Origin: a virus
Lineage: Duplodnaviria; Caudoviricetes
Reading direction: 5' to 3' (one strand)
Virus record (IMG/VR): IMGVR_UViG_3300037280_000106
Span: 1-61,797 of that record
DNA length: 61,797 nt
Program-made: the position numbers and the translations under genes
Notes under the pieces: model-generated
Told to the model about the DNA's origin: nothing
The model's database searches: none
The model's input: only the letters and a program-made list of their open reading frames with translations
In this document: in pieces, positions 4,038 through 34,614 of the stretch
Position numbering within the stretch: the first letter of the stretch is position 1
How the letters are laid out: each line of letters opens with the position of its first letter

Positions 4038-4607
4038 ATGCATGCAGTAAAATATACAGGAGACTTTGGTTTTATAAAGCCTTTTTCAGCATTAAGAGAC
4101 ATTAAAACATATAGCGTCTTAGGCTTAACGCCGTCAATTGTTATGGGCATTGAAACTAAATTATTTGGCGATTGTGCCAATAGAATCATTAGTCACAGAC
4201 TTTCATTTACAAATATTGTTTCAATGAAAGAACAAGCAACGTCAATTGGATATAAGATTGATAAAAATAAAAATAATACTTATCGTAAAAAGATTGGTTC
4301 AGTTATTGAAAGATTTGTGTTAGTAAATCCGTGTCTATATTTATTAGTTAATACGATAGAAGAAGCTGAGGAAATGAGTTGCCAAAACATAAGGCTTACT
4401 CGCAACGAAGAAATATTATTTCCAAGTAAAGACATTATCACTGTTAATGATCAAAATGCTTTTGATAGTGACGATTTTGAAGGCTACGAATTGGTATCAT
4501 GCGATGAAAACAATTTAAATGGTCAGTACTATGGCTCAAACAAATATACTGGTAAAGATCAGTATGCCTTTATGAAAGTCGTAGGAATACCAGAAGTCTT
4601 GAAATAA
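4038..4607 (+). CDS. cas5: CRISPR-associated Cas5 (type I-B-like)
   Basis: N-terminal YTGDFGFIKPF..RD..TYS...TPS RAMP motif; first gene of the cas operon. Confidence 0.75.
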   Translation: MHAVKYTGDFGFIKPFSALRDIKTYSVLGLTPSIVMGIETKLFGDCANRIISHRLSFTNIVSMKEQATSIGYKIDKNKNNTYRKKIGSVIERFVLVNPCLYLLVNTIEEAEEMSCQNIRLTRNEEILFPSKDIITVNDQNAFDSDDFEGYELVSCDENNLNGQYYGSNKYTGKDQYAFMKVVGIPEVLK

Positions 4608-6742
4608 TGGATAAAAGACACTTAGATGTACTTGCAAAAAGTATGCCTGATGGTACTTCACTATATCATCACCTATATGATGTTGGTCAGACTGCAAGAA
4701 TTTTCGCAAAGCACTTAAATTTTAATAGTGATACTGCTCAAAAAGGTGGGATATTCCATGATATAGGTAAAGCATCCACGCTTCAACAAGAAGTATTTGA
4801 CGTTGATTATGTAGACAATATTAATCGTGAAGTTTTTAGGCATGAGATATGTTCATTATTCTTTTTGTCATGTTTCGATAAAAGCATATGGAATGACTTA
4901 ATAGACTACGTGTCAGGACATCATAAATCGGTTGTAGATGATGCAAAACTACGAGGACTAATCGATCTAGTTGATATATATGGCTTCGATTATGTATTTG
5001 AGAGACATGCTACTAATTTCGAGCAATGGTCTGAAATGGCTCTTGATATATTGGAAAGTTTGGGGATTGAGCGAGTTGTACTAACGAGGGAAATGGCTAA
5101 AGATAACTTATTATATGCTTATAATTATCTATGTGCTGCAATTGAGAATAATAGTATCAGCAAACTCAGAGGCGTTTTAATTGGCTCAGACCATTTTGCG
5201 TCGGCTTTAAGGTACTCAACAATGAGACAACTTAATCGATTATTTAAAATTCCAAATATCGATTTTTATCATAATAGAGTATCAGATGAAAAATTATATC
5301 CTTTAGCATTCAAAACGATTGACTCAATAAAGCCACACACAATTATCATTGCGCCAACTGGAAGTGGTAAAACTGATTGCGTGATGAAAAGAACCAGAGG
5401 AAGAATCATGTATACATTACCTCAAACAGTTTCTATAAATTCAATGTATCAAAGACTTAAAAATAATTTAAGTGCTGATAATGAGGATTTAGATATCAGA
5501 GTGCTGCATTCAACGTCCAGAATAGTTGTTGATAATGGTAATATTACTGAAAAAGTAATGCAATCAAAAATAGGCGCATCGATCAAGGTAACGACGCCGC
5601 ACCAACTTCTTGAAATAGTATTTGGTGTGCAAGGCTATGAAGCAACTGTATGCGATCTAATTGGGTGTGACATAATACTGGATGAAATTCATACGTACTC
5701 TGATAAGATTCAGGCGTCTGTAGTAAAAATGATTGAACTATTGAATATGCTCGATTGTCGCATACATATCTGTACAGCAACTATATCATCAAAGCTTAAA
5801 GACAAAATTATTTCCATCTTAGGCGAAGATAATATTGAGATAATTACTCTAACAAAAGAAGAAACGAATACTTATGATAGGCATATAATACATAAGCATG
5901 ACATACGAACAAAGAACAATACACTTGATGATAAACTTATCGAAATTGTAACTAACACCGTAAAGAAAAACGAAAAAGTATTAATTGTAAAAAATCAGGT
6001 GGCGCATTCACAAATTGTTTACAATCAAATTGCGCCAATGTTTCCTGATATACCTGTTATTCTAATACATAGTCGTTTTAAAAGAGGTGCAAGAATTGAA
6101 TTAGAAAGAAAACTGACAGAGCTTAATTATGACAGAGATTCAGCATGTATTGTCATTGCCACACAAGTAGTCGAAGTAAGCTTGGATATAAGCTTGCACG
6201 TACTTATAACAGACTGCGCAACCATTGACGCATTAATACAACGATTGGGTAGAATAAATCGAATTCGTAATGCATCGACACTAGGCTTATTAATGCATGC
6301 GTACATAATTAAGCCACCAACATCAGATTATGAAGCCAACCCATATTCATTAAGATATTTAAATAAAACTTACGATGTTTTAAGGGATGGACAGGTTTTA
6401 AGAGAATGTGATCTGCAAAAATATATTGATTATGTGTATGACGATGTTGAGTTTACGTCAATAGATGCTGAGAGCATTTTGGTTAACGGAAAAATAGTTA
6501 TACCAAAATTAACGCATCATGCGAGATCATGCCTTTATAAACAATTTGATATATCGTCTGCGGTACTGATAACAAATTGTGATGTTGATGCGTATATCGA
6601 AGCGAATTTTGAGGAAAAGCTTAAGTTTGAAATACCTGTTCAGTTTTACACAATCGGAAAGTTGAACTTAAAACAGTTGCCAACAGGTGCATTTATTATT
6701 CCTGATAATTTCTATGACGAAAAATTAGGATTAATATTATAA
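4607..6742 (+). CDS. cas3: CRISPR-associated nuclease-helicase Cas3
   Basis: HD domain (HH, FHDIGK, RHE, GHH, SDH) and SF2 helicase (APTGSGKT, DEIH, TAT, HSRF, ATQVVEVSLDI, QRLGRINR). Confidence 0.95.
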   Translation: MDKRHLDVLAKSMPDGTSLYHHLYDVGQTARIFAKHLNFNSDTAQKGGIFHDIGKASTLQQEVFDVDYVDNINREVFRHEICSLFFLSCFDKSIWNDLIDYVSGHHKSVVDDAKLRGLIDLVDIYGFDYVFERHATNFEQWSEMALDILESLGIERVVLTREMAKDNLLYAYNYLCAAIENNSISKLRGVLIGSDHFASALRYSTMRQLNRLFKIPNIDFYHNRVSDEKLYPLAFKTIDSIKPHTIIIAPTGSGKTDCVMKRTRGRIMYTLPQTVSINSMYQRLKNNLSADNEDLDIRVLHSTSRIVVDNGNITEKVMQSKIGASIKVTTPHQLLEIVFGVQGYEATVCDLIGCDIILDEIHTYSDKIQASVVKMIELLNMLDCRIHICTATISSKLKDKIISILGEDNIEIITLTKEETNTYDRHIIHKHDIRTKNNTLDDKLIEIVTNTVKKNEKVLIVKNQVAHSQIVYNQIAPMFPDIPVILIHSRFKRGARIELERKLTELNYDRDSACIVIATQVVEVSLDISLHVLITDCATIDALIQRLGRINRIRNASTLGLLMHAYIIKPPTSDYEANPYSLRYLNKTYDVLRDGQVLRECDLQKYIDYVYDDVEFTSIDAESILVNGKIVIPKLTHHARSCLYKQFDISSAVLITNCDVDAYIEANFEEKLKFEIPVQFYTIGKLNLKQLPTGAFIIPDNFYDEKLGLIL

Positions 6743-6801: not shown

Positions 6802-8094
6802 ATGATCGTCTCCAAATATGGTAAATTATTTCTTGACTATTACAATCAAAAAAATAATTGTGCGATAACACCCAAAGAATTTGTGACTGATAAGCTACTA
6901 CCATTTTTATATAATGGCAAAAGACTTATGTTTGTAATGAATTCAATTTTCACAAACCCAAGCAACAAAAAGTATTCTTTTGATGCTAAATTAAAGATGT
7001 TTGTTGAGGGAGTGGAAAACGGCGCATGCGACGCCAGTATTGTCATTGGCGGATTTGCAAAAGGTTTTGATGCCACTACAAGCTTTAATGTTGCTCTGGA
7101 TTACATTCCTAAATATAATGAAGATGATGTTTATTTAAGCTGGATTGGCGGTGCTCTCAGTGTTTCACTAGATACTAACAACATACAGTTTTTATTCAAT
7201 AGTCCTGAAATATTGTATGATATTTATACAGGATGGGAGCGATTAAACGTACTAAACAATGACCCAATTTACAAAGATTTTAGCGAAAATCAAATTAACA
7301 CGTATAATGGCTTATGGTTAAATTATCTCGCAAAGAAATCTAAACGTCCGTCAACACCTGAATTTAACCCTTATATTGATTCGGCTATAAAAAAGGGTGA
7401 TTCGTCATCGCTTATCAATACGTCATGGATATCGCTTTTATTTAATTTAGGCAACAGATATAATTATGATATGGTAAACGCTTATGTTTTCAGATATGTG
7501 AGAGATAATTTTACGTATGGTAATGTGAGCATTTATTTGAAAAAAATGAGCAATATAATTGAATATTTTAGATCAAATTTTGAAGGATATGACTACCTAA
7601 GCACCTTGGAAAATTATGAGAAGGTTGTCGGTAGAAATTCTTTAGACGCAATTTGTCGCTATGGCGTAATTGGCTTAATTCCTTTAAAACCTGAAATATT
7701 AAGGCTTGAGGAAAAATCATATTCTAAAGATGCTGATAAGAATAAATGTTACAACAATATTAATGCTTACGATCAAAAATTTATTAATTTATATATTATG
7801 TCGAAATTAAAATTTACAGACGATCAATTAGATAGCATCGTTAAAGGATTGCACACGTTTAAGGATAGTCCATCAACAAAAAGTAGCGGCACAAAAATTA
7901 TTGAGGAATTATGGAATGCTGGCAATAATTTAAAAGTCGTGAGTGTACTAACAAAGTTTGCCGAATACATTGGAAACGGAATTGAAAAGGAGACCATTTT
8001 ATCAATTGAAGCTCTTTTCAAATCAGAAAAAGTAATTGATTACAGAGAAATTATCGCTGTATTAAAATATAAGTATATAATGTTTAACAAATAA
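6802..8094 (+). CDS. cas8: Type I large subunit Cas8 (I-B-like), probably with an internally translated Cas11 from 7798
   Basis: 430 aa between cas3 and cas7; helical C-terminus; assigned mainly from gene order. Confidence 0.7.
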   Translation: MIVSKYGKLFLDYYNQKNNCAITPKEFVTDKLLPFLYNGKRLMFVMNSIFTNPSNKKYSFDAKLKMFVEGVENGACDASIVIGGFAKGFDATTSFNVALDYIPKYNEDDVYLSWIGGALSVSLDTNNIQFLFNSPEILYDIYTGWERLNVLNNDPIYKDFSENQINTYNGLWLNYLAKKSKRPSTPEFNPYIDSAIKKGDSSSLINTSWISLLFNLGNRYNYDMVNAYVFRYVRDNFTYGNVSIYLKKMSNIIEYFRSNFEGYDYLSTLENYEKVVGRNSLDAICRYGVIGLIPLKPEILRLEEKSYSKDADKNKCYNNINAYDQKFINLYIMSKLKFTDDQLDSIVKGLHTFKDSPSTKSSGTKIIEELWNAGNNLKVVSVLTKFAEYIGNGIEKETILSIEALFKSEKVIDYREIIAVLKYKYIMFNK

Positions 8095-8102
8095 AAATTG
8101 AA

Positions 8103-9203
8103 ATGAAAAAAAATTTAATGATTCGGGGTTTAAAAAAGATTGATTTTACTGTACTATGTGTCGATTCAGGACAGAAAACATATTATGATACAGTATCTGG
8201 TAGAAGCCTTCCATATTCTTCTGGACAACAGATTAAAAAGAGTATCATGAATAACATTTATGATAGCTCAGAATATTTTCCATCACCATTAATATTCTGG
8301 CATAATGCTGAGGGCGCAAAACTTACGCAAGGCGAAGTGATTCCTAAATGCGACCCAAGATACATTGATCAGTTACTTGCTGGATATATGGCTGCTGCCG
8401 CAAAAACTGACGGCGAACAAGAAGCCGTATTAAAAAGTAAAGCACATTTTGCCGTTAGCGCAATGACGCCATTTCACAGTAAATTGGCTGGATTGGTTGA
8501 AGAAAAGGTCATTATAAACAAAATTGACAATCCTGTATATAAACTTCGTAAAGTCGAGAAAAAAGGCGACAACGTTGAGCTATCTGAGTCTGAAATTATT
8601 GAATTCCTAAATGCAAACAATCAGAGATTCAGTAGTATTAAATTGATTCCATTAAAAAGTGGTGATCGTGCCCATAATCGTGCGAACGGAATCTTTAAAT
8701 ATGACGTTGATATCGATTTAGAGAGGCTTTTCAGGGTTTCTGTCTCATTGGGTAGTAATGAGATCAATTCAAAAATTGAAGGCGAATTAAAGGCTGCTGG
8801 TTGGAAAGAAGTGACTATTAAGAATATCACTTATCTCGAAATGCCGAAAGAATTTCATGATGAATATGCTGGCTTAATTGCACACGCCGTATTTAACTGG
8901 AAAATAACCTCAAATAATTCAAGGACATATGACAATATGGCAACCTTTGCAGCGGCTATTTGCACAGACGCAAAAGAAGTCCAGATATGTATGCAGTATG
9001 AGCCGTCAATTGACGACGACAATAAACTTGAAAAGGGCATTGCTTTGGATGGCGGTGGAAATGGTACAAAAATATTCTTAGAGAAATTTGCACTGGAATA
9101 TTTAAACATATCCTTTAATCCTGACGAAGTTACGCCAAAAAACAGAGCGATAACAGACGCTGAACAGTATGTAAAAGAAGCTATTCTCGAATACTATAAA
9201 TAA
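8103..9203 (+). CDS. cas7: CRISPR-associated Cas7 backbone subunit
   Basis: GQKTYYD...PYSSGQQIKKSI, DQLLAGYM, VSAMTPFH; 366 aa upstream of cas6. Confidence 0.8.
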   Translation: MKKNLMIRGLKKIDFTVLCVDSGQKTYYDTVSGRSLPYSSGQQIKKSIMNNIYDSSEYFPSPLIFWHNAEGAKLTQGEVIPKCDPRYIDQLLAGYMAAAAKTDGEQEAVLKSKAHFAVSAMTPFHSKLAGLVEEKVIINKIDNPVYKLRKVEKKGDNVELSESEIIEFLNANNQRFSSIKLIPLKSGDRAHNRANGIFKYDVDIDLERLFRVSVSLGSNEINSKIEGELKAAGWKEVTIKNITYLEMPKEFHDEYAGLIAHAVFNWKITSNNSRTYDNMATFAAAICTDAKEVQICMQYEPSIDDDNKLEKGIALDGGGNGTKIFLEKFALEYLNISFNPDEVTPKNRAITDAEQYVKEAILEYYK

Positions 9204-9208
9204 AAACA

Positions 9209-9910
9209 ATGAGATTCAAAATAACGTTGTCACCAAATGATACGTTGATTCCTTATAACTATAACGACATGATAATTAACTACATTCATGCCGTTATAGG
9301 AAAGGATAACTCGTTTCATGATAAGAAATCGCTATATTCAATTAGTGATCTATATCATCCTTATGATAGTAAGGGTACACCAAAAGGTATCGACTTTAAA
9401 AGCGGTGCGTACTTATTCGTGTCATCTGCCGACAATGAGTTTACAACCAAATTTCTGAGTAATGTATATGATCATCCTGTATTATTCAATGGCATGAAAA
9501 TAGAGTTGATTGAACTTGTACAAATGTACCCACAGAAGATTGCCGACAACACATACAAATATGTTGTCCAATCACCAGTTTTATTACAAAATAAAATAAA
9601 AAAGGATGATGGTAAGTCGTTTACAAACTTTTACACTTATGATGATGATGATCATCCTATTTATATGAAACGAATATTGCTAAGTAAACTCGATGAACTA
9701 AACATAGAATACGACCCGAACGATATTGAAATTTACTTCGATTCATCTTGTCGCAATAAACATATTAAATGGATTAAGGTTCATGGTATCAATAATAAAT
9801 GTTCCAGTTGTCCAGTTATTTTAAAAACAACAAATTCTCAAATACCACAAATACTTTTCGATATCGGAGTGGGACACAGCACAGGCTGTTGTTTTGGCTT
9901 TGTAAAATAA
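9209..9910 (+). CDS. cas6: CRISPR endoribonuclease Cas6
   Basis: MRFKI..IPYNY, SLYSIS, SPVLL, C-terminal G-rich loop GVGHSTGCCFG; adjacent to the array. Confidence 0.9.
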   Translation: MRFKITLSPNDTLIPYNYNDMIINYIHAVIGKDNSFHDKKSLYSISDLYHPYDSKGTPKGIDFKSGAYLFVSSADNEFTTKFLSNVYDHPVLFNGMKIELIELVQMYPQKIADNTYKYVVQSPVLLQNKIKKDDGKSFTNFYTYDDDDHPIYMKRILLSKLDELNIEYDPNDIEIYFDSSCRNKHIKWIKVHGINNKCSSCPVILKTTNSQIPQILFDIGVGHSTGCCFGFVK

Positions 9911-10117
9911 TTAAGGTTGTCGATGTCCAATAGCATGAAAATGATGGCACATCGACAACCTTCTCATTTATAATAGCTTATGATGATATTTAGCACTGCT
10001 TACCAATTATATTGTTAAATAAGTAATGCTAAAAAATGCACATCGACAACTTAAACATAAATCACAATTATAATTATCAAATAATCAACAACTTATAATT
10101 GCTAATTATTTGATCGG
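9911..10117 (+). promoter_or_regulatory. CRISPR leader
   Basis: AT-rich; inverted repeat AAGGTTGTCGATGT (9913-9926)/ACATCGACAACCTT (9949-9962); second GCACATCGACAAC at 10038-10050. Confidence 0.8.
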
Positions 10118-12355
10118 GTTTGAATCGTACTATAGTGGAATGTAAAGATAAAATGAAAACATCAGAAAAGATAATAAAAGCATGTTTGAATCGTACTATA
10201 GTGGAATGTAAAGTCATTAAACAGGTGGTTGCATACAGGAACAAAAGAAGTTTGAATCGTACTATAGTGGAATGTAAAGATCGTAGCACCTGAAACAACG
10301 CCCTTACCTTTTGCGTTTGAATCGTACTATAGTGGAATGTAAAGATGATTTAGAGTATGTTGGCTATATGAATGCTGATGTTTGAATCGTACTATAGTGG
10401 AATGTAAAGAGGGGTAACGGCAAAAGCCAGTTAATAATAGCACTGTTTGAATCGTACTATAGTGGAATGTAAAGACCCAAACAACAGTAACAGCAACAGT
10501 GGTGACGAGTTTGAATCGTACTATAGTGGAATGTAAAGGAATTTCCGTAACGCTGGTGGCGTCGTTGGTCGCAAGTTTGAATCGTACTATAGTGGAATGT
10601 AAAGATTGGGGACAACGTATTAGAAAGCGTTAAACGTTGTTTGAATCGTACTATAGTGGAATGTAAAGATCGCAGGCGTTGTGGCTTTAGGTGCTTCAAT
10701 CAAATGTTTGAATCGTACTATAGTGGAATGTAAAGTGGTTAACTGCATCAATTCGGTTAAGCCTGTTCTTGTTTGAATCGTACTATAGTGGAATGTAAAG
10801 CAATGATAACAGGCGTTTTAAGTAGTATAAATAGTTGTTTAAATAGTACCATACTGGAATGTAAAGTCAACTATAATCTTAACGGCTCTTAAGTTATGAA
10901 GTTTGAATAGTGCTATATGGAATGTAAAGTTGAAAGTAATATCAAAGGATGTCACGTCCTTTATGTTTGAATAGTACCATACTGGAATGTAAAGTCGTTA
11001 CCGTTTATGTCGATACACATGAAGCACGAGTTCGAATAGTACCAATTTGGAATGTAAAGGAGGCAACGTTACAAGCATATCTAAGGGGTAATAGAGTTTG
11101 AATAGTGCCATAGTGGAATGTAAAGTTACGTACAGCATTGACTTTTCCGCTCTTCATCCTATGTTTGAATAGTACCATACTGGAATGTAAAGTATGGTTA
11201 TATGAAAGTAGCTAAAAAGTTGGTAGTTGTTTGAATAGTGCCATAGTGGAATGTAAAGAAAATATGTAAGTCAAATCCAGTTCTTTGAATAGTTTGTTTG
11301 AATCGTATCATAGTGGAATGTAAAGACAAGTCTTATCAATAGCACAGTCGTATTAGATGCTGTTTGAATAGTGCTGTATGGAATGTAAAAAACGAATTCT
11401 TTTTCACATTACTATCTGTTGAGTAAGGCTTGAATTATACCATATGGAATGTAAAGGTTTTATCCATTCAAACGAAATATTTTTCTGTTTGAATAGTGTC
11501 ATATGAAATGTAAAGATAGAACGAAGACTAAGGCGATTAAAGTGCAACACGTGTTTGAATAGTACCATACTGGAATGTAAAAGCCAAAAAATACTTTGTT
11601 TGGATTGATCGAAGGTTGAATAATGCCATACTGGAATGTAAAGGCATCAATAAGGACAGCAAATTCCTGATACCAAGGGTGTTTGAATAGTGCCATAGTG
11701 GAATGTAAAGGAGTCAACGTTACAGGCATATCTAGAGGTAACAGAGTTTGAATGGTACTGGAATGGAATGTAAAGTTAGGGTATTTATCTAAAATAGACC
11801 TTATATAATTTGTTTAAATAGTGTCATATGGAATGTAAAAAGCGTCTGTCCGTTTTTAAGATTGATTTTGTTTAGGGCTTGAATGGTACTGGAATGGAAT
11901 GTAAAGAATAATGGGACAATTGTTTGTATATCTAATAACAGGTTTGAATAGTGTCATATGAGATGTAAAGTTTTCGACGAAACGAAATGACAAAAATTAC
12001 AAGATCAGACTTGAATAGTACTACGTGGAATGTAAAATACAATTTGGAGAGCATGTCATTAAAATGTTTGAATAATACTATGCGGAATGTAAATATCATA
12101 GACGCTGCTTCTTATTGTGTTAATCCTTGTTTGAATTATACCGTATGAAATGTAAAGTATGGAATGTAAATCACACGCCGCAGACCATTAATTTTTTATT
12201 TAATAAGTCTGAATAGTACCATGTGGAATGTAAAAAAATATTGATGTTCATCATTGTCGAGAAATTGCAGAGGTTTGAATTATACCATAGCGGAATGTAA
12301 AGTCAAGATCAAATTCGATCTGTTGAACAAGGAAATTATACCATAGTGGAATAAT
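10118..12355 (+). CRISPR. CRISPR array, about 35 repeats and 34 spacers; leader-proximal repeat GTTTGAATCGTACTATAGTGGAATGTAAAG
   Basis: 11 identical 30-nt repeats (10118-10800), then 29-30-nt variants; spacers mostly 34-38 nt; degenerate terminal repeat near 12331-12355. Confidence 0.98.
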
Positions 12356-12396
12356 CAAACAATCGACAACAAATCAAATTTAGTGTCGATTGTTTG
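12356..12396 (+). terminator. Hairpin at the array trailer
   Basis: CAAACAATCGACA...TGTCGATTGTTTG, overlapping the -35 box of the next promoter. Confidence 0.55.
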
Positions 12397-29771: not shown

Positions 29772-30209
29772 ATGTCAGTAAAAATTCAGATCAACAGTGT
29801 TGAAGCACTTGAAAGACTTATCGGTGGAAACACTGAAATCGAAATCGAATTAAGACAATCAGTCGTTGAAAATTTTATGAAAAAGCATATCAATGCAATT
29901 GCCAACAGCAAGGTGTCGGCGGCAGTTACCAAAGACGTTTTGGCTGAATTGATTGTTCCAGCAAAAGATTACAGAAGTTCTGAATCACTTACTGCAAAAG
30001 CCAAAGACTTGTTACACAATACAATCGATTACCAATTCAAAACAATTTTGAACGAAGCACTTGATAAATATTTGACAGATACTGGAATTGATACACTTAT
30101 TAAAGAAAAGGCTTCTTACATTGCTGAAACTTTAACAAACGCCAGAATTGACGAAAGATTTGACAGACAAGTTGACGCTGAAATAAAAAAGAGATTAGGC
30201 TTGAAATAA
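29772..30209 (+). CDS. Hypothetical protein (start reassigned to MSVKIQ)
   Basis: ATG lies after the promoter at 29720; the longer ORF would overlap the hairpin and promoter. Confidence 0.6.
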   Translation: MSVKIQINSVEALERLIGGNTEIEIELRQSVVENFMKKHINAIANSKVSAAVTKDVLAELIVPAKDYRSSESLTAKAKDLLHNTIDYQFKTILNEALDKYLTDTGIDTLIKEKASYIAETLTNARIDERFDRQVDAEIKKRLGLK

Positions 30210-30283
30210 TTGCTTATTTTTGTAACCTTTTCAAAGTTTCAACGTATAAGTAGAAAATAAGTTCATTAAAACATTTAAGATAT

Positions 30284-30359
30284 GGCGGATTTTAGCTCAG
30301 TTCGGTAGAGCAGCCCAGCAAGGCAGGTCACTGGTTCGAATCCTTTACGTCCGCCGCCA
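30284..30359 (+). ncRNA. tRNA-like RNA with truncated anticodon arm and encoded CCA
   Basis: GGCGGAT/GTCCGCC stem, TAGCTCAGTTCGGTAGAGC D-arm, GGTTCGAATCC T-loop; anticodon arm only GCC-CAGCAA-GGC. Confidence 0.65.
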
Positions 30360-30435
30360 CATTCGCATGGGAACATGCAAGTTATCCATAATAAAGCTGT
30401 AATAACATATGATAAAAGCAGTATAAAAGTGGATA

Positions 30436-30512
30436 TGCGAGATAGCTCAGGTCTGGTAAGAGCGTGCCCACACATGTGGGCAAGGTCAGGTGTTCAAATC
30501 ATCTTCTCGCTA
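30436..30512 (+). ncRNA. tRNA-like RNA with non-canonical anticodon arm (TGCCC-ACACATGT-GGGCA)
   Basis: GCGAGA/TCTCGC acceptor, D-arm, GTTCAAATC T-loop; 8-nt self-pairing loop. Confidence 0.65.
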
Positions 30513-30531
30513 CAAATTAAAATTAAAAATA

Positions 30532-30813
30532 ATGGAAAAATATGAAGCTGGCAATACTCAGCCTGAGTTTATAGCTCTAAGAGAACAGATTTGCAATTCG
30601 TTGGCGAATTTAAATGACAATTTAAGTACGATTAATAGTAGAATTGATCTTCTAAATTTTAATCCTATTATAAAAGAGCCACGTTGCGAGGAAGAAGCTG
30701 ATAAAGGCAAAGGTACAAGTGCTATTGATAATCTCCAATACATTCTCGATGAAATCGACAGACTTATTGTCCTTACAAATACTTCGAGAACAAATATTTG
30801 TAGATTTATCTAA
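30532..30813 (+). CDS. Hypothetical protein (start reassigned to MEKYE)
   Basis: The upstream extension would overlap the tRNA-like RNA. Confidence 0.55.
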   Translation: MEKYEAGNTQPEFIALREQICNSLANLNDNLSTINSRIDLLNFNPIIKEPRCEEEADKGKGTSAIDNLQYILDEIDRLIVLTNTSRTNICRFI

Positions 30814-30829
30814 TAAAGTTCATTGAAAA

Positions 30830-31260
30830 TATTGTGAAAAGCGGCATCCGATTTTAGCGGCTGTGCGAGTCACATTAAGGCGGTAAACATGATTTAACAT
30901 GTTGTAATTTATTACGGTTATCCTACTGCCTTCGAAAATAAACTCTTTTGCTAAAAGCAAAACGACAGTATAAGTTACCTAAAGGTCAGTGTATAGACTG
31001 ACGATTCAAGGGGTTTGGCGCAACCAGACTCAATCAAAACTTAGTAGCCTTAACATGGCTATGTACTGAGATCATGCAAAGATCGTGTTTTGTGGATAGA
31101 TGGTATGGCACTTGAAAAAATGCCGCTGTTAGCCATTACGTGATCGGTTAGATTCCGATTACCATTTCCTTGCAAGAACAAAAGAGATAGAAAAGGTTCT
31201 GAGGCTCAAACCTCATTGAAGTCGACGGATGATATGAGGACTTAATCTCAGACCTTTTTG
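30830..31260 (+). ncRNA. Candidate structured non-coding RNA(s), including a degenerate tRNA-like unit at 31099-31167
   Basis: No ORF, boxA-like motif upstream, many hairpins; ATGGTA/TACCAT acceptor with ATCGG-TTAGATT-CCGAT T-arm. Confidence 0.5.
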
Positions 31261-31364
31261 TTAAAATATTCGCAGGTATATCACGATACGTGCAAATTTG
31301 CTCTTTTATGACCAATGTCTAATAACGTGATTGACGACAATAGGCTTAAAGAGTGTACAAAGGA

Positions 31365-31435
31365 AGTACCGTAGCTCAGTTGGATAGAGCGTCTTCTAAC
31401 GAGGAAGGTCATAGGTTCGAACCCTGTCGGTATAA
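31365..31435 (+). ncRNA. tRNA-like RNA (Arg-TCT-like remnant) lacking the 5' anticodon stem
   Basis: GTACCG/CGGTAT acceptor, TAGCTCAGTTGGATAGAGC, CTTCTAA loop without a stem, GGTTCGAACCC. Confidence 0.6.
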
Positions 31436-31521
31436 CAATTATGATACCTTGCATAGGAATATGCAAATTGCTTATAATAAAAACGTAATAAGCTAGAATA
31501 AAAGCGTAATAAAAATGAGTA

Positions 31522-31597
31522 TGTGGAATAGCTTAGTCTGGGCTAAAGCACTACATTGATACTGTAGAGATCGTTGGCTCAAATCCAACTTCCGCAA
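31522..31597 (+). tRNA. tRNA-Ile(GAT)
   Basis: TGTGGAA/TTCCGCA acceptor; CTACA-TTGATAC-TGTAG anticodon arm; GTTGG-CTCAAAT-CCAAC T-arm. Confidence 0.75.
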
Positions 31598-31619
31598 CTA
31601 AAAGAAGTTCTTTGAAAAT

Positions 31620-31945
31620 AAACGCCTAAGAGTGTGAGAGGAAGAAGCCAACGGTAAGACGGTCAACTCACAAATCTCTGCTCTATGGTGTGTTTTATTG
31701 TGAATTAAAAACAGGCGTAGTATCATAAAGGCATCTATGTATGTCACGCATAGACTTATCGCCGATTGTCAATTTGATACAGTTCACAAAAATATAACAA
31801 AGAGTGCCACATAAAGTCCCCGATGTCTTGGGGATCGACGGCATAAGTGGTTTAGCGACTCAAAAGTTCGGCACTCACGGAATTTGTAACCGTATTTTAA
31901 GGACTAAAATTATGTCAAGACTGACGTGGGAAAGACCTCAAAAAT
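31620..31945 (+). ncRNA. Candidate structured non-coding RNA
   Basis: No ORF; boxA-like motif upstream; long-range stems ACGCCT/AGGCGT and GAGTGCC/GGCACTC. Confidence 0.45.
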
Positions 31946-32016
31946 TGGCTAGATAGTTCAAGTTGGATAGAACGTCTGGATCGAGAAAGTCGCAGGTTCG
32001 AACCCTGCCTAGCCAG
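31946..32016 (+). ncRNA. tRNA-like RNA with truncated anticodon arm
   Basis: TGGCTAG/CTAGCCA acceptor, GTTC..GAAC D-stem, GCAGG-TTCGAAC-CCTGC T-arm; arm only TCT-GGATCG-AGA. Confidence 0.65.
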
Positions 32017-32038
32017 CAAATTTAAAATTCTTACAGTC

Positions 32039-32308
32039 ATGGGAAAAGCATTAATTGCTATATTAGTTATTATATTTTTATATGTTGGTCTACATAGATA
32101 TGAACAAATTCAGAACTATGAGGCAAAAGTAAAAACATACAATACAATTGTCGTACTTAATGATTCAATAAGAAACGAAATTGCTGCTGGTAAGGCTTAT
32201 TATAATTATCTTATTTATAAAAGAGAAGTTATAAGAGAATGCAACAGACGTAATGTCGAATTGGACATGGACGCAATTGACTTAGCATACGAGCAATTAA
32301 AAAAATAA
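32039..32308 (+). CDS. Membrane-anchored hypothetical protein
   Basis: N-terminal hydrophobic helix. Confidence 0.55.
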   Translation: MGKALIAILVIIFLYVGLHRYEQIQNYEAKVKTYNTIVVLNDSIRNEIAAGKAYYNYLIYKREVIRECNRRNVELDMDAIDLAYEQLKK

Positions 32309-32439
32309 TATATGGGACACTATTGCGATTATTACGATTTTTACAGTGAGAGAGATCAGATTTTAAAAATGCGTAGAGAGAAAAAGCACAAGGTATCCTG
32401 TGCGATAGGTCATTCAAAACGTAAAAAGAAACGTTAAAA

Positions 32440-32835
32440 TATGAACGTGGTTTCATAAGGTGTTTTTCAATCGTATACAGGTTGAGAGCATTGAGGGGAG
32501 TTTTAAGAGTGAAAGTATAGGAAGATCGATTAATTCCTAATGATAGCGATTAATAGCGGCTCGTTGCCGCACATGTTTCACCATGAGGGCTTTTGAGGGT
32601 ATGCATACTTTCTTAAGTTATTGACTGCCAAGTCTAAAACGCTGAGATATCTAAGGCGATGCGGATTATAGTCTCTAAAACTCAACAGAATAAAGATAAG
32701 TTCAGTTCTGCTTAAGGTAAATAGTAACATGCGTAGTATGTTAAAGGTCAATACCGAGATCGTTATTTGCTGAGAGTTCAGGCACTGCCAGAAGGTAGGT
32801 TAGCCAAATTATGACTTGGTAAGTCAGACCAGAAA
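32440..32835 (+). ncRNA. Candidate large structured non-coding RNA
   Basis: About 400 nt without an ORF inside the tRNA island, with several short hairpins. Confidence 0.4.
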
Positions 32836-32850
32836 TGTTCTTTAAAGGTT

Positions 32851-32928
32851 TGCGATGTGGTTCGTAGTGCTATAGTGGAATGTAAAACTGCATAAGTCAG
32901 CTTGTCGGTGAAAATCCGATCATCGCAA
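32851..32928 (+). ncRNA. tRNA-scaffold RNA containing a solitary CRISPR repeat (32865-32887)
   Basis: TGCGATG/CATCGCA acceptor, GTCGG-TGAAAAT-CCGAT T-arm; internal TAGTGCTATAGTGGAATGTAAA matches the array repeats. Confidence 0.75.
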
Positions 32929-32959
32929 ATCTTTTTTTAATTTTTAAGTACGTAATATC

Positions 32960-33408
32960 ATGGGAAGAACACTAGAAGACTTTGACAAATTCACTACACA
33001 AGACTTATTCGACGAAATCCTTAGCATGGAGAAAGGCGATCTGTATGATGGTTGTAGTAGCAAAGGCTTACAGCGTGAACAAAATGCCGCAAAAAAAGTG
33101 TTCGGAGAACGAATGCAAAAATTAGGATTTGATTGGATTTTATAAAATTAAAGATGAAGAAAAACACAATATTTATAATTATAATGCTTGCTCTATGTCT
33201 TGCTGTCGCAGCATATTCCGCTTACAGCGTATCAAGTAGTTATGATAGAATGATTTTAGCTATTGACAAGGCATCTAACGATGCATATGTTCAAGGTTTG
33301 GTTGACGGTATGAACTTTAAAAACATAAATGATACGTCAAAAATCAATTACAGATATAAATTGGTCTTAGTGGGGGATTCCATTCTAAAGCCAATCAAAA
33401 AAAAATAA
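32960..33408 (+). other. Two small hypothetical ORFs (32960-33145; 33133-33408 with a signal/TM segment)
   Basis: ORF track. Confidence 0.5.
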
Positions 33409-33565
33409 GAACACCACTCGGCTGACGTTTGGGTTCGATTAATAGCTGATGAAGTATCAGGGTTGTTAGAACCATGATGAAATATGGGAATTTACTTTGA
33501 GTAGTCGGCTATTTTTATTGTATTTTTTGTAACAAATTTTAATTTGTAACGTATAAGTAATAAAT

Positions 33566-33700
33566 GGCGGAATAGCGAAATTGGTACACGTTATATTTGG
33601 ACTATGGGCGATGTTTAACGATAAGACAAACTCTAAATTCCATTTATAAGCTCAGACTTATCGCTTACGAGTGCTACTGGTTCGAGTCCAGTTTCTGCCA
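33566..33700 (+). ncRNA. Leu-type tRNA-like RNA with an insertion of roughly 50 nt in the anticodon region
   Basis: GGCGGAA/TTCTGCC acceptor, GCGAAATTGGTACACG D-arm, ACTGG-TTCGAGT-CCAGT T-arm; 135 nt; directly after the promoter at 33528. Confidence 0.65.
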
Positions 33701-33773
33701 CAGGTCGGGTAATGCCCGAATGAACTTTGGAGTGCGAGGTAGCCAAAGCCAGATCGAAAAAATGCTCGCCCAT

Positions 33774-33852
33774 GTCGATTTAGCTCAGTCTGGTAGAGCA
33801 GCGTAAATCCTACAACGGTGGTTGGTCGGAAGTTCGAATCTTCCATTCGGCA
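33774..33852 (+). ncRNA. tRNA-like RNA with scrambled anticodon arm
   Basis: TAGCTCAGTCTGGTAGAGC D-arm, GGAAG-TTCGAAT-CTTCC T-arm. Confidence 0.6.
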
Positions 33853-33939
33853 CAATGCAGTATTCTCCGAAAGGAACGAGCATTAATAGTAACATCGCCA
33901 GCGAGGTTCGCACTAAAGCTTTAGCAACTGGCATTTTAT

Positions 33940-34139
33940 GGAGTTATGCGACAGGGATTTGTCGCACCTATTTATAGGATTGTAATGACCTGTTTATAGG
34001 ATGGCAATGATGCAGAAAAGAATTATTGAGTAGTAACATTTAGCTGATGTTACGATTCAACCGATCTGTAATCATAAATAAAAATAGCAATTGCGCAGTT
34101 GCTTATTTTAGCCTTTGGGTTCGACTCCCTTTAGCTTCA
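33940..34139 (+). ncRNA. 200-nt RNA closed by a tRNA-like acceptor stem and T-arm
   Basis: GGAGTTA/TAGCTTC-A, GGG-TTCGACT-CCC, internal hairpins such as TGCGAC/GTCGCA. Confidence 0.55.
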
Positions 34140-34144
34140 CATTA

Positions 34145-34304
34145 GGAGAGGCGGCTCATAAAAATCTGGAAAATCCAGATGCTGAAAAGTATAAAAAATT
34201 CTTCTCCGCACAGTACATGAGGTATAATTGTTCGCTGTATATGGCTTAAGTAACATATATGGAATCGTCTTAAAAAATGAGCAAGGCTGAGACATACCTC
34301 TCCA
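34145..34304 (+). ncRNA. 160-nt RNA closed by an acceptor-like stem
   Basis: GGAGAGG/CCTCTCC-A, GCTCAT/ATGAGC, ATCTGG-AAAAT-CCAGAT hairpin. Confidence 0.45.
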
Positions 34305-34314
34305 CATTAATACA

Positions 34315-34355
34315 CCTTCCATGCCTCTCTAAGATGCACACTTGGAAGGTTTTTT
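34315..34355 (+). terminator. Hairpin with T-tract ending the RNA island
   Basis: ACCTTCCA...TGGAAGGT followed by Ts. Confidence 0.55.
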
Positions 34356-34614
34356 CTTTAAAAATACATTGTTATGGAAATTTATTTTGTTTTTGATCTT
34401 GTAGCATTTTTCGCATTCCTTATATGTACAATCGTAAGCTTCGGAATGTCTGATCTTTACTCTGATATCTGTGAAAAGAAATGTTGGCATAATTATGGAA
34501 TGTTCTATGGAGTGATGACTGTTATATGTTTACTTGTTTTAGTATTGTTAATAATCATCGGAATAAAGACAGCATAAATTGTAACAAATGCAATTTTCCA
34601 ACGTATAAGCAAGT

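Follow-up and report, generated by a model that had tools for sequence, protein, structure and literature searches.

The tRNA clusters of T4-type phages encode stable non-tRNA RNAs with tRNA-like ends, and we know of no CRISPR-derived segment in any of these stable, tRNA-shaped RNAs. The combination of guide RNAs with tRNAs is familiar from engineered polycistronic tRNA-guide RNA arrays, which are man-made and in which the guide is flanked by real tRNAs. Viral RNAs that resemble crRNAs have been described under several names. Racr are RNA anti-CRISPRs that are described as arising from solitary repeat units in phages (PMC10651486). Cracr are presented as viral crRNA-like RNAs in which one repeat-like unit is followed by a spacer-like stretch and this, in turn, by a rho-independent terminator, with spacers that are shorter than those of arrays (bioRxiv 10.1101/2024.10.29.618823). 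CreA/CreR mini-arrays and standalone repeats are reported from within CRISPR-cas loci, with a match threshold of 16 bp (bioRxiv 10.1101/2023.03.03.530964). Among the papers listed by our literature search, supplements aside, none describes a natural tRNA-scaffolded crRNA.

Phage record and CRISPR-Cas locus

The 61.8-kb stretch of DNA analysed here (the window) corresponds to an entire IMG/VR record (G000). CheckV estimates its completeness at 19%, and the window is thus a fragment of a very large phage; it encodes homologues of rIIA and rIIB. The phage carries a compact type I cas set, in which the genes for Cas3, a 430-aa protein, a Cas7-like protein and Cas6 are followed by the array (Table 1). 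No adaptation gene was recognised among the eight window proteins scanned. PDB sequence searches with a 189-aa ORF, the Cas7-like protein and Cas6 yielded nothing useful, the best match being a Cas6 chain (E = 0.0045).

The leader-proximal repeat, present in 11 identical copies of 30 nt, reads GTTTGAATCGTACTATAGTGGAATGTAAAG, most array spacers measure 33-37 nt, and a terminator-like hairpin (12356-12396) lies directly 3' of the array. When compared with G001 and L030 (both introduced below) and with the rest of the window, the spacers showed only chance runs of 13-15 nt. The distal two-thirds of the array (10837-12352) is a mosaic of repeat variants, and the near-duplicate spacers at 11060-11095 and 11711-11745, together with the truncated final repeat, suggest a segmental duplication in this part. 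Hairpins sharing ATCGACAAC are found at both array ends (9913-9962, 10037-10055 and 12356-12396).

Table 1. Features of the window and of the corresponding locus of the relative (L009).
Feature	Position	Strand	Remarks
cas3	4607-6742	+	Cas3 core, 193.6 bits
430-aa gene without assignment	6802-8094	+	between cas3 and the cas7-like gene
cas7-like gene	8103-9203	+	Cas7/Cst2/DevR type I-B model, E = 1e-4, below cut-off
cas6	9209-9910	+	PF01881, 37.6 bits; TIGR01877, 50.3 bits, below the 58.65 cut-off
CRISPR array	10118-12352	+	11 identical 30-nt repeats, about 23 degenerate, last repeat truncated
Abnormal tRNA-like genes, window	30286-30354, 30436-30513, 31365-31436, 31947-32015, 33566-33700, 33774-33853		
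Abnormal tRNA-like genes, L009	1493-1559, 4411-4501		L009 coordinates
tRNA-Ile(GAT)	31522-31598		only normal-looking tRNA in the island
Conserved noncoding locus, three modules	32440-32940	+	no + strand ORF >26 aa; L009 2474-3215
tRNA-shaped RNA, expanded, long arms, encoded ACCA end	32443-32583 (141 nt)	+	L009 2474-2617
Middle domain	32584-32843	+	235/259 aligned bases identical to L009
3' domain with the repeat piece	32844-32938	+	third module of the noncoding locus
Closing helix, 5' strand AAAGGUUUGCGAUG	32844-32857	+	pairs with 32921-32934 (predicted, 14 bp); last 7 nt form the 'acceptor strand' of the sequence-only reading
Linker UGGUUCG before the variable arm	32858-32864	+	conserved; 21/21 identity to L009 over 32844-32864
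Variable arm	between ...GTGGTTCG and ACTGCATAAG...	+	filled by the 22-mer in the window
CRISPR-repeat-derived 22-mer TAGTGCTATAGTGGAATGTAAA	32865-32886	+	matches three array variants at 21/22
Small predicted hairpin CUGC-AUAA-G(U)CAG	32888-32900	+	consensus fold
T-arm-like predicted hairpin GUCGG-UGAAAAU-CCGAU	32904-32920	+	5 bp, 7-nt loop, non-canonical; loop U to C in L009
Closing helix, 3' strand CAUCGCAAAUCUUU, into a 7-T run	32921-32938	+	terminator-like; T-run 32932-32938

A repeat fragment outside the array

A pattern search with the 22-mer of Table 1 at up to three mismatches returned 20 matches in the window, namely 19 in the array (10125-11709) and the piece itself, and none of 100 shuffles contained any match. 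The piece has the orientation of the array; it differs at one position from the array variants at 11103, 11236 and 11688 and at two positions from the leader-proximal repeat with its 11 identical copies. An nhmmer search with a profile built from 34 array repeats recovered it with E = 1.2e-4 and 19.5 bits (profile positions 10-31 of 32), as the sole significant off-array match in the window and G001 taken together (about 157 kb); the closest other repeat match was that at 12334-12352. In local alignments to the repeats, its score was reached by 0 of 2000 shuffles. These comparisons mark the 22-mer as genuinely derived from the phage's own repeat, of which it copies the 3' two-thirds (repeat positions 8-29; 22/30, 73%), with the 5' GTTTGAA missing.

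An earlier reading of the DNA made from its letters only (the sequence-only reading) had singled out this match (21/22 at 32865-32886) as a solitary copy, and pattern search, nhmmer and shuffles agree with it. It had also noted that the repeat 3' end with the future 8-nt handle is included, and this is so: the piece spans the would-be Cas6 site 32879/32880, behind which the handle AUGUAAA(A), AUGUAAAA, occupies 32880-32887. No ORF of at least 20 aa overlaps the 22-mer, which is intergenic.

The stretch was found in 24 DNA runs labelled peat metagenome, with no RNA run among those listed, and the four runs that were examined contained no variants. Contigs from two of the four (X21 record 3 and X22 record 6) bridge the 22-mer with 0 differences, and those from the other two stop at 32879-32906. 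Because independent assemblies bridge it identically, the 22-mer is not an assembly artefact.

A conserved noncoding locus in a tRNA-like island

One related phage was found, with the locus L009 in G001 (= L017); L024, which lies in a 328.5-kb contig, agrees with L009 at 100% over 4734 nt. G001 is syntenic with the window from 29.7 kb onward, with coding DNA 70-84% identical; the comparison is one with a single relative, whose contig ends at window position ~29.7 kb, before the position at which a CRISPR locus would be expected. In both phages, the sequence around the variable arm belongs to a noncoding locus with three modules (Table 1), none of which is matched by an Rfam family. Identity between the phages amounts to 91-100% in the middle and 3' parts, as compared with 70-84% for the neighbouring genes. 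We consider 32440-32940 a candidate new structured phage RNA.

Although the first module, which is tRNA-shaped, is only 68.6% identical between the window and the relative, separate predictions for the two arrive at one four-way fold. In the relative's copy, the T-loop is canonical and a G3-U70 pair occurs; this copy matches the Rfam tmRNA model weakly, at 11.1 bits (E = 0.03), against a gathering score of 47. At the window copy (32443-32583), Rfam gave no tmRNA match and the tmRNA mode of ARAGORN was silent even at lowered thresholds. In the middle domain, the block insertions of the relative total 171 nt, and the changes between the two phages in a predicted long-range helix are compatible with wobble pairing. 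A permuted or two-piece tmRNA, in which GGAAUGU of the repeat piece would form a duplex with the upstream acceptor strand, was considered and rejected, as the duplex was not convincing against shuffles: it has -7.8 kcal/mol in the window, reached by 477 and 405 of 2000 shuffles, and the corresponding test in the relative gave -12.7 kcal/mol, reached by 67 and 104 of 2000.

tRNA-like genes abound in the 4 kb that contain the locus, and in all of them except the tRNA-Ile the anticodon arm is too short or too long; the relative shows the same. These abnormal genes have good acceptor, D and T arms. Their anticodon regions consist of 4-6 nt in place of 11, or of 18, 29 or >51 nt, and ARAGORN assigns them two-base 'anticodons'. 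Downstream, an abiF RNA motif (RF03085) scores above its gathering score of 37 in both phages (window 34315-34350, 38.1 bits; L009 4857-4892, 40.5 bits). Over this stretch, the window and G001 share 96% identity, and the surroundings of the motif (33880-34359) are 91% identical to L030. The motif is named after an abortive-infection gene, and the phage copy could be a decoy. At 31697-31788, a noncoding block of 92 nt matches G001 at 100%, with identity of ~75% around it; nothing in the predicted fold of the block stands out (z = -1.5).

Predicted fold of the 3' domain

The third module is predicted to form a domain that is closed by a long helix and runs into a U-run (Table 1). Its minimum free energy corresponds to a z-score of -3.9, a stability that 0 of 200 shuffles attained. 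The consensus fold contains the small hairpin at 32888-32900, which competes with an alternative in the minimum free energy fold, where the repeat piece is predicted to pair with ACUGC (32864-32891). A consensus terminator scan placed a terminator-like site at 32906-32925. The closing helix is identical in L009 with all 14 pairs invariant, and hence shows no covariation.

The sequence-only reading had taken this domain for a tRNA scaffold with an apparently intact 3' half of a tRNA(CAT). Several of its elements are confirmed: the pairing of TGCGATG with CATCGCA is real and extends to 14 bp (32844-32857 with 32921-32934), and both the hairpin GTCGG-TGAAAAT-CCGAT (32904-32920) and the T-run (32932-32938) are present. 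The intact tRNA half itself did not hold up. With the Rfam tRNA model (RF00005) at E<=10, no match was obtained in 32420-32950 (531 nt), nor was there one at the 3' domain in a scan of 30200-34600 (4.4 kb), though seven other tRNA-like matches were found there, and ARAGORN made no tRNA call at the domain at default thresholds. The T-loop reads UGAAAAU, as opposed to UUCgAaU in the Rfam tRNA consensus, and the D-arm position of the would-be tRNA is occupied by the repeat piece. Once its threshold was lowered to 80% (-ps80), ARAGORN drew a tRNA-Tyr(GUA) cloverleaf at 32850-32929 with a long variable arm and the anticodon loop AUGUAAA; this cloverleaf is not kept in L009. What stands of the scaffold is a closed domain followed by a U-run, which is loosely cloverleaf-shaped only and is not a tRNA by standard detectors. 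Similarly, the boxA-like motif that had been noted, TGTTCTTTAAA, is present once, yet one or more matches of this kind turn up in 32 of 100 shuffles, so that it is not above chance.

A resemblance between the closing-helix arm and the hairpin at the start of the CRISPR leader just after cas6 (9913-9962; 11 of 13 bases) was judged too weak. With up to two mismatches, the arm pattern has four matches in the window (the helix itself twice and the leader hairpin twice), and with up to three mismatches, it has 25 as compared with 19.3 expected.

The variable arm in the relative

The flanks of the variable arm are nearly identical in the two phages, at 21/21 positions on the left and 51/52 on the right, U-run included. 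Given that coding DNA is only 70-84% identical, the flanks are strongly constrained independently of the repeat. Between them, the 22-nt repeat piece of the window stands against an unrelated 99-nt insert in L009; the alignment of this segment has 13/22 identical positions and 77 extra bases in L009. The nhmmer repeat profile found no match at the relative's arm in G001, and 440 of 2000 shuffles score as well as the insert against the repeats. Directly before (A/C)CACTGC/ACTGC at the right junction, TGTAAA is common to both phages, so that only ~16 nt need to have come from the array. The same noncoding locus of the relative contains two further block insertions, and such insertions are as expected of peripheral arms in a structured RNA.

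We also asked whether the 99-nt insert might be the repeat of another system. It is unique within G001 and the window, and a scan of IMG/VR with its 3' 17-mer led to one chance match, in L037, and to no array; this idea was rejected accordingly.

These data bear on the ~40-nt guide that the sequence-only reading had proposed downstream of the repeat piece. As the stretch is 51/52 identical in L009, where no repeat is recognisable, it is conserved for a repeat-independent reason. Since the insert is unique and not repeat-like, the guide is scaffold under constraint, which exists without the repeat, in an RNA whose arm tolerates replacement. The same reading had named a random one-off insertion in related phages as evidence against itself, and the unrelated 99-nt insert of the single relative fits this description.

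Exact scans of IMG/VR and of metagenome contigs with the conserved RNA blocks returned only the same relative. Loci L016 and L018-L023 have a 19-20-nt seed in common with the locus, or nothing, and a junction 24-mer gave 0 matches. With the neighbouring 61-aa protein as query, only L009 was found, and with Cas7 no relative. The RIIA query led to L030, a contig that starts at window ~33880, outside the noncoding locus. The phage collection contained no match over the noncoding locus.

Target searches and candidate hosts

In the window, the would-be guide (32888-32928) reaches a best identity of 23/41, as compared with 22-25 in 20 shuffles, and a longest run of 11 nt, as compared with 9-15; its best seed-anchored run is 8 nt. 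A 35-nt guide pattern with every sixth base free had 0 matches in 185,579 species (one genome each), which speaks against tRNA genes of hosts being targeted. With a 21-nt seed version, IMG/VR yielded only the relative's own locus, and no seed-proximal match was present in G001 or in six CRISPR-linked loci (76 kb) of a possible host, G002. The proposed action against tRNA genes or competing elements is thus left without a protospacer-like target in the window, the 185,579 species genomes, IMG/VR and the 76 kb of G002, searches that cover about one-fifth of the phage genome and one unproven host.

The repeat family is present in G002, a Candidatus Omnitrophota MAG, and in an Anaeromicropila MAG; among 401 sampled genomes of the phylum of G002, G002 is the only one that contains it. 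This MAG carries three Cas6 homologues and several short arrays with the repeat GTTTTAATCGTACCATAGTGGAATGTAAAG, which differs from the leader-proximal repeat of the phage at 2/30 positions. At least three of its arrays (L026 7945, L027 565-790 and L028, minus strand) share a ~90-nt leader. The solitary 22-mer is closer to the phage's own array variants. G002 is a possible host, or a possible source of the phage's CRISPR system.

Comparison with described RNAs

The 22-mer resembles Racr in being a lone repeat copy that is intergenic, lies on the strand that would be transcribed, has no other repeat within 100 bp and occurs in a phage with a possible host of nearly the same repeat. Unlike a near full-length repeat, it comprises only 22/30 positions. 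The SRUFinder rule takes at least 90% repeat coverage as a full match, and the 22-mer, at 73%, is a 'partial match' in its terms (PMC10651486). Moreover, Racr directly follows its own promoter, whereas the 22-mer lies at the end of a long conserved structured RNA, and the window phage carries its own cas genes and array.

The likeness to Cracr lies in the same three parts in the same order: a repeat-like unit (32865-32887), a spacer-like stretch (32888-32931) and a helix followed by seven T. The spacer-like stretch is longer than the array spacers, in contrast to the short spacers of Cracr. What defines Cracr, a partial match of the spacer to a PAM-flanked promoter of a cas or toxin gene, was sought here in the window, G001, the 76 kb of G002 loci and the species genomes and not found. 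Finally, repeat and stretch are not conserved together, as the relative has the stretch (51/52) but no repeat.

With CreA/CreR, the locus shares a partial or degenerate off-array repeat, the match of which exceeds the 16-bp threshold, and cas genes with a weak, below-cut-off match to a type I-B Cas7 model. In contrast to them, the 22-mer is located 20.5 kb from the cas locus rather than in or beside it and constitutes a single repeat-like unit, and neither a promoter target nor a toxin partner was seen for it. By description, the locus is comparable to the stable RNAs of T4-type phages in that a non-tRNA RNA with tRNA-like ends is encoded among phage tRNA genes, and the window phage has rIIA/rIIB homologues as T4-type phages do. 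Engineered tRNA-guide arrays have in common with the locus the idea of a guide RNA with tRNA-like processing signals, but the window scaffold is not a tRNA and its processing is hypothetical.

Origin and possible function of the repeat piece

We give about even chances to the reading that we prefer, in which the 22-mer is a fragment of the repeat that recombination brought, specifically in this lineage, into a permissive arm of a structured phage RNA, and has no guide function. Short-tract recombination or template switching with the array would have placed it there in the window's lineage, and the TGTAAA shared at the right junction would have helped. The arm would accept almost any filler, 22 nt in the window and 99 unrelated nt in the relative, and the repeat piece would fold back on the conserved ACUGC to form it. 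The downstream 'guide' would be scaffold rather than spacer, made up of the small hairpin, the T-arm-like hairpin, the 3' strand of the closing helix and the U-run, and we count in favour of this that it is mostly base-paired in both predicted folds. The repeat piece would then be dispensable for the conserved function of the RNA, and any contact with Cas proteins would be incidental. We infer the recombination origin as well as the transcription and the folds of the locus. Against the scar count the 21/22 identity, the array orientation, the retained handle-bearing 3' part, the intergenic position and the terminator right behind it, features that together resemble a working solitary-repeat RNA. 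Furthermore, a fragment under no selection should degenerate with time, which is what happened to many distal array repeats.

The main rival, conceivable if doubtful, is that the locus gives rise to a working crRNA-like RNA of the Racr/Cracr kind, with a repeat-like unit, a spacer-like stretch and a terminator. A Cas6 cut of the long precursor at 32879/32880, or its trimming by tRNA-processing enzymes, would yield AUGUAAAA plus ~44 nt, which would load Cas5/Cas7. The product would either titrate the Cascade of a host with a near-identical repeat or steer the Cascade of phage or host to a partly matching promoter. The layout is consistent with the architecture described for Cracr (bioRxiv 10.1101/2024.10.29.618823) and with solitary repeat units as reported (PMC10651486), and the handle-bearing part of the repeat is retained at 21/22, its ending ...GTAAAA recurring in the array repeats at 11361, 11553, 11811, 12008 and 12206. 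Genes for Cas6, a Cas7-like protein and Cas3 are present in the phage, G002 carries the GTTTTAATCGTACCATAGTGGAATGTAAAG arrays and its Cas6 homologues, and the spacer-like stretch is conserved at 51/52. Yet the relative keeps that stretch without a detectable repeat, and no seed-proximal target was found in the window, G001, the 76 kb of G002 loci, the species genomes or IMG/VR. At 44 nt, the stretch exceeds the 33-37 nt of most array spacers, and it is predicted to be largely paired. Coverage of 22/30 repeat positions (73%) compares with 90% for an SRUFinder full match, the 5' third of the repeat being missing. A Cas6 that acts on unstructured repeats of this class needs the 5' end of the repeat. 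Since the one relative lacks the piece, a functional guide or decoy RNA made from it is no more than possible.

We think it unlikely that such an RNA is made as part of a tRNA-shaped fold. In that scenario, a CRISPR-carrying jumbo phage would produce a crRNA-like RNA from the 3' end of its tRNA-island transcript, and a Cas6, encoded by the phage or by an Omnitrophota-type host with the near-identical repeat, would cut at 32879/32880. This would leave the handle and a conserved structured tail as a Cascade decoy or regulatory guide, and the arm would be swapped between related phages according to the Cas system met. Improbable in our view is an ancestral repeat in both phages, which would have been kept along with CRISPR-Cas in the window's lineage and destroyed by insertions in that of the relative. 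The left junction of L009 reads GGTTCGAAT, which is also how the array variant at 11030 begins (GTTCGAAT...), its right junction is TGTAAA, and G001 ends before the position of the CRISPR locus, so that a loss there along with the cas genes is compatible with the data; but GGTTCGAAT is a common T-loop motif of the Rfam tRNA consensus, and the similarity of L009 to the repeats is insignificant (440/2000 shuffles for the left part and 1082/2000 for the right part). We attach very little probability to a decayed true tRNA gene with an anticodon arm that merely resembles the repeat: the cloverleaf that ARAGORN draws with -ps80 (32850-32929, anticodon loop AUGUAAA) and the location among tRNA-like genes would suit it, whereas the 21/22 match is beyond chance resemblance, and the domain shows no default call, no Rfam match, a weak D-arm, a non-canonical T-loop and no such cloverleaf in L009.

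Should the repeat piece be functional, it would represent a natural guide-like or decoy RNA in a tRNA-shaped scaffold, from a phage that owns a type I system. It would thereby link the processing of phage tRNA-island RNAs to CRISPR conflict and mirror the engineered tRNA-guide arrays. If the piece is a recombination scar, it calls for caution, as distant partial repeats would need comparative support before they are labelled as RNAs with an anti-CRISPR or regulatory role. On both readings, the firmer finding is the scaffold, a noncoding locus of ~500 nt that matches no Rfam family and is largely better conserved than the genes nearby.
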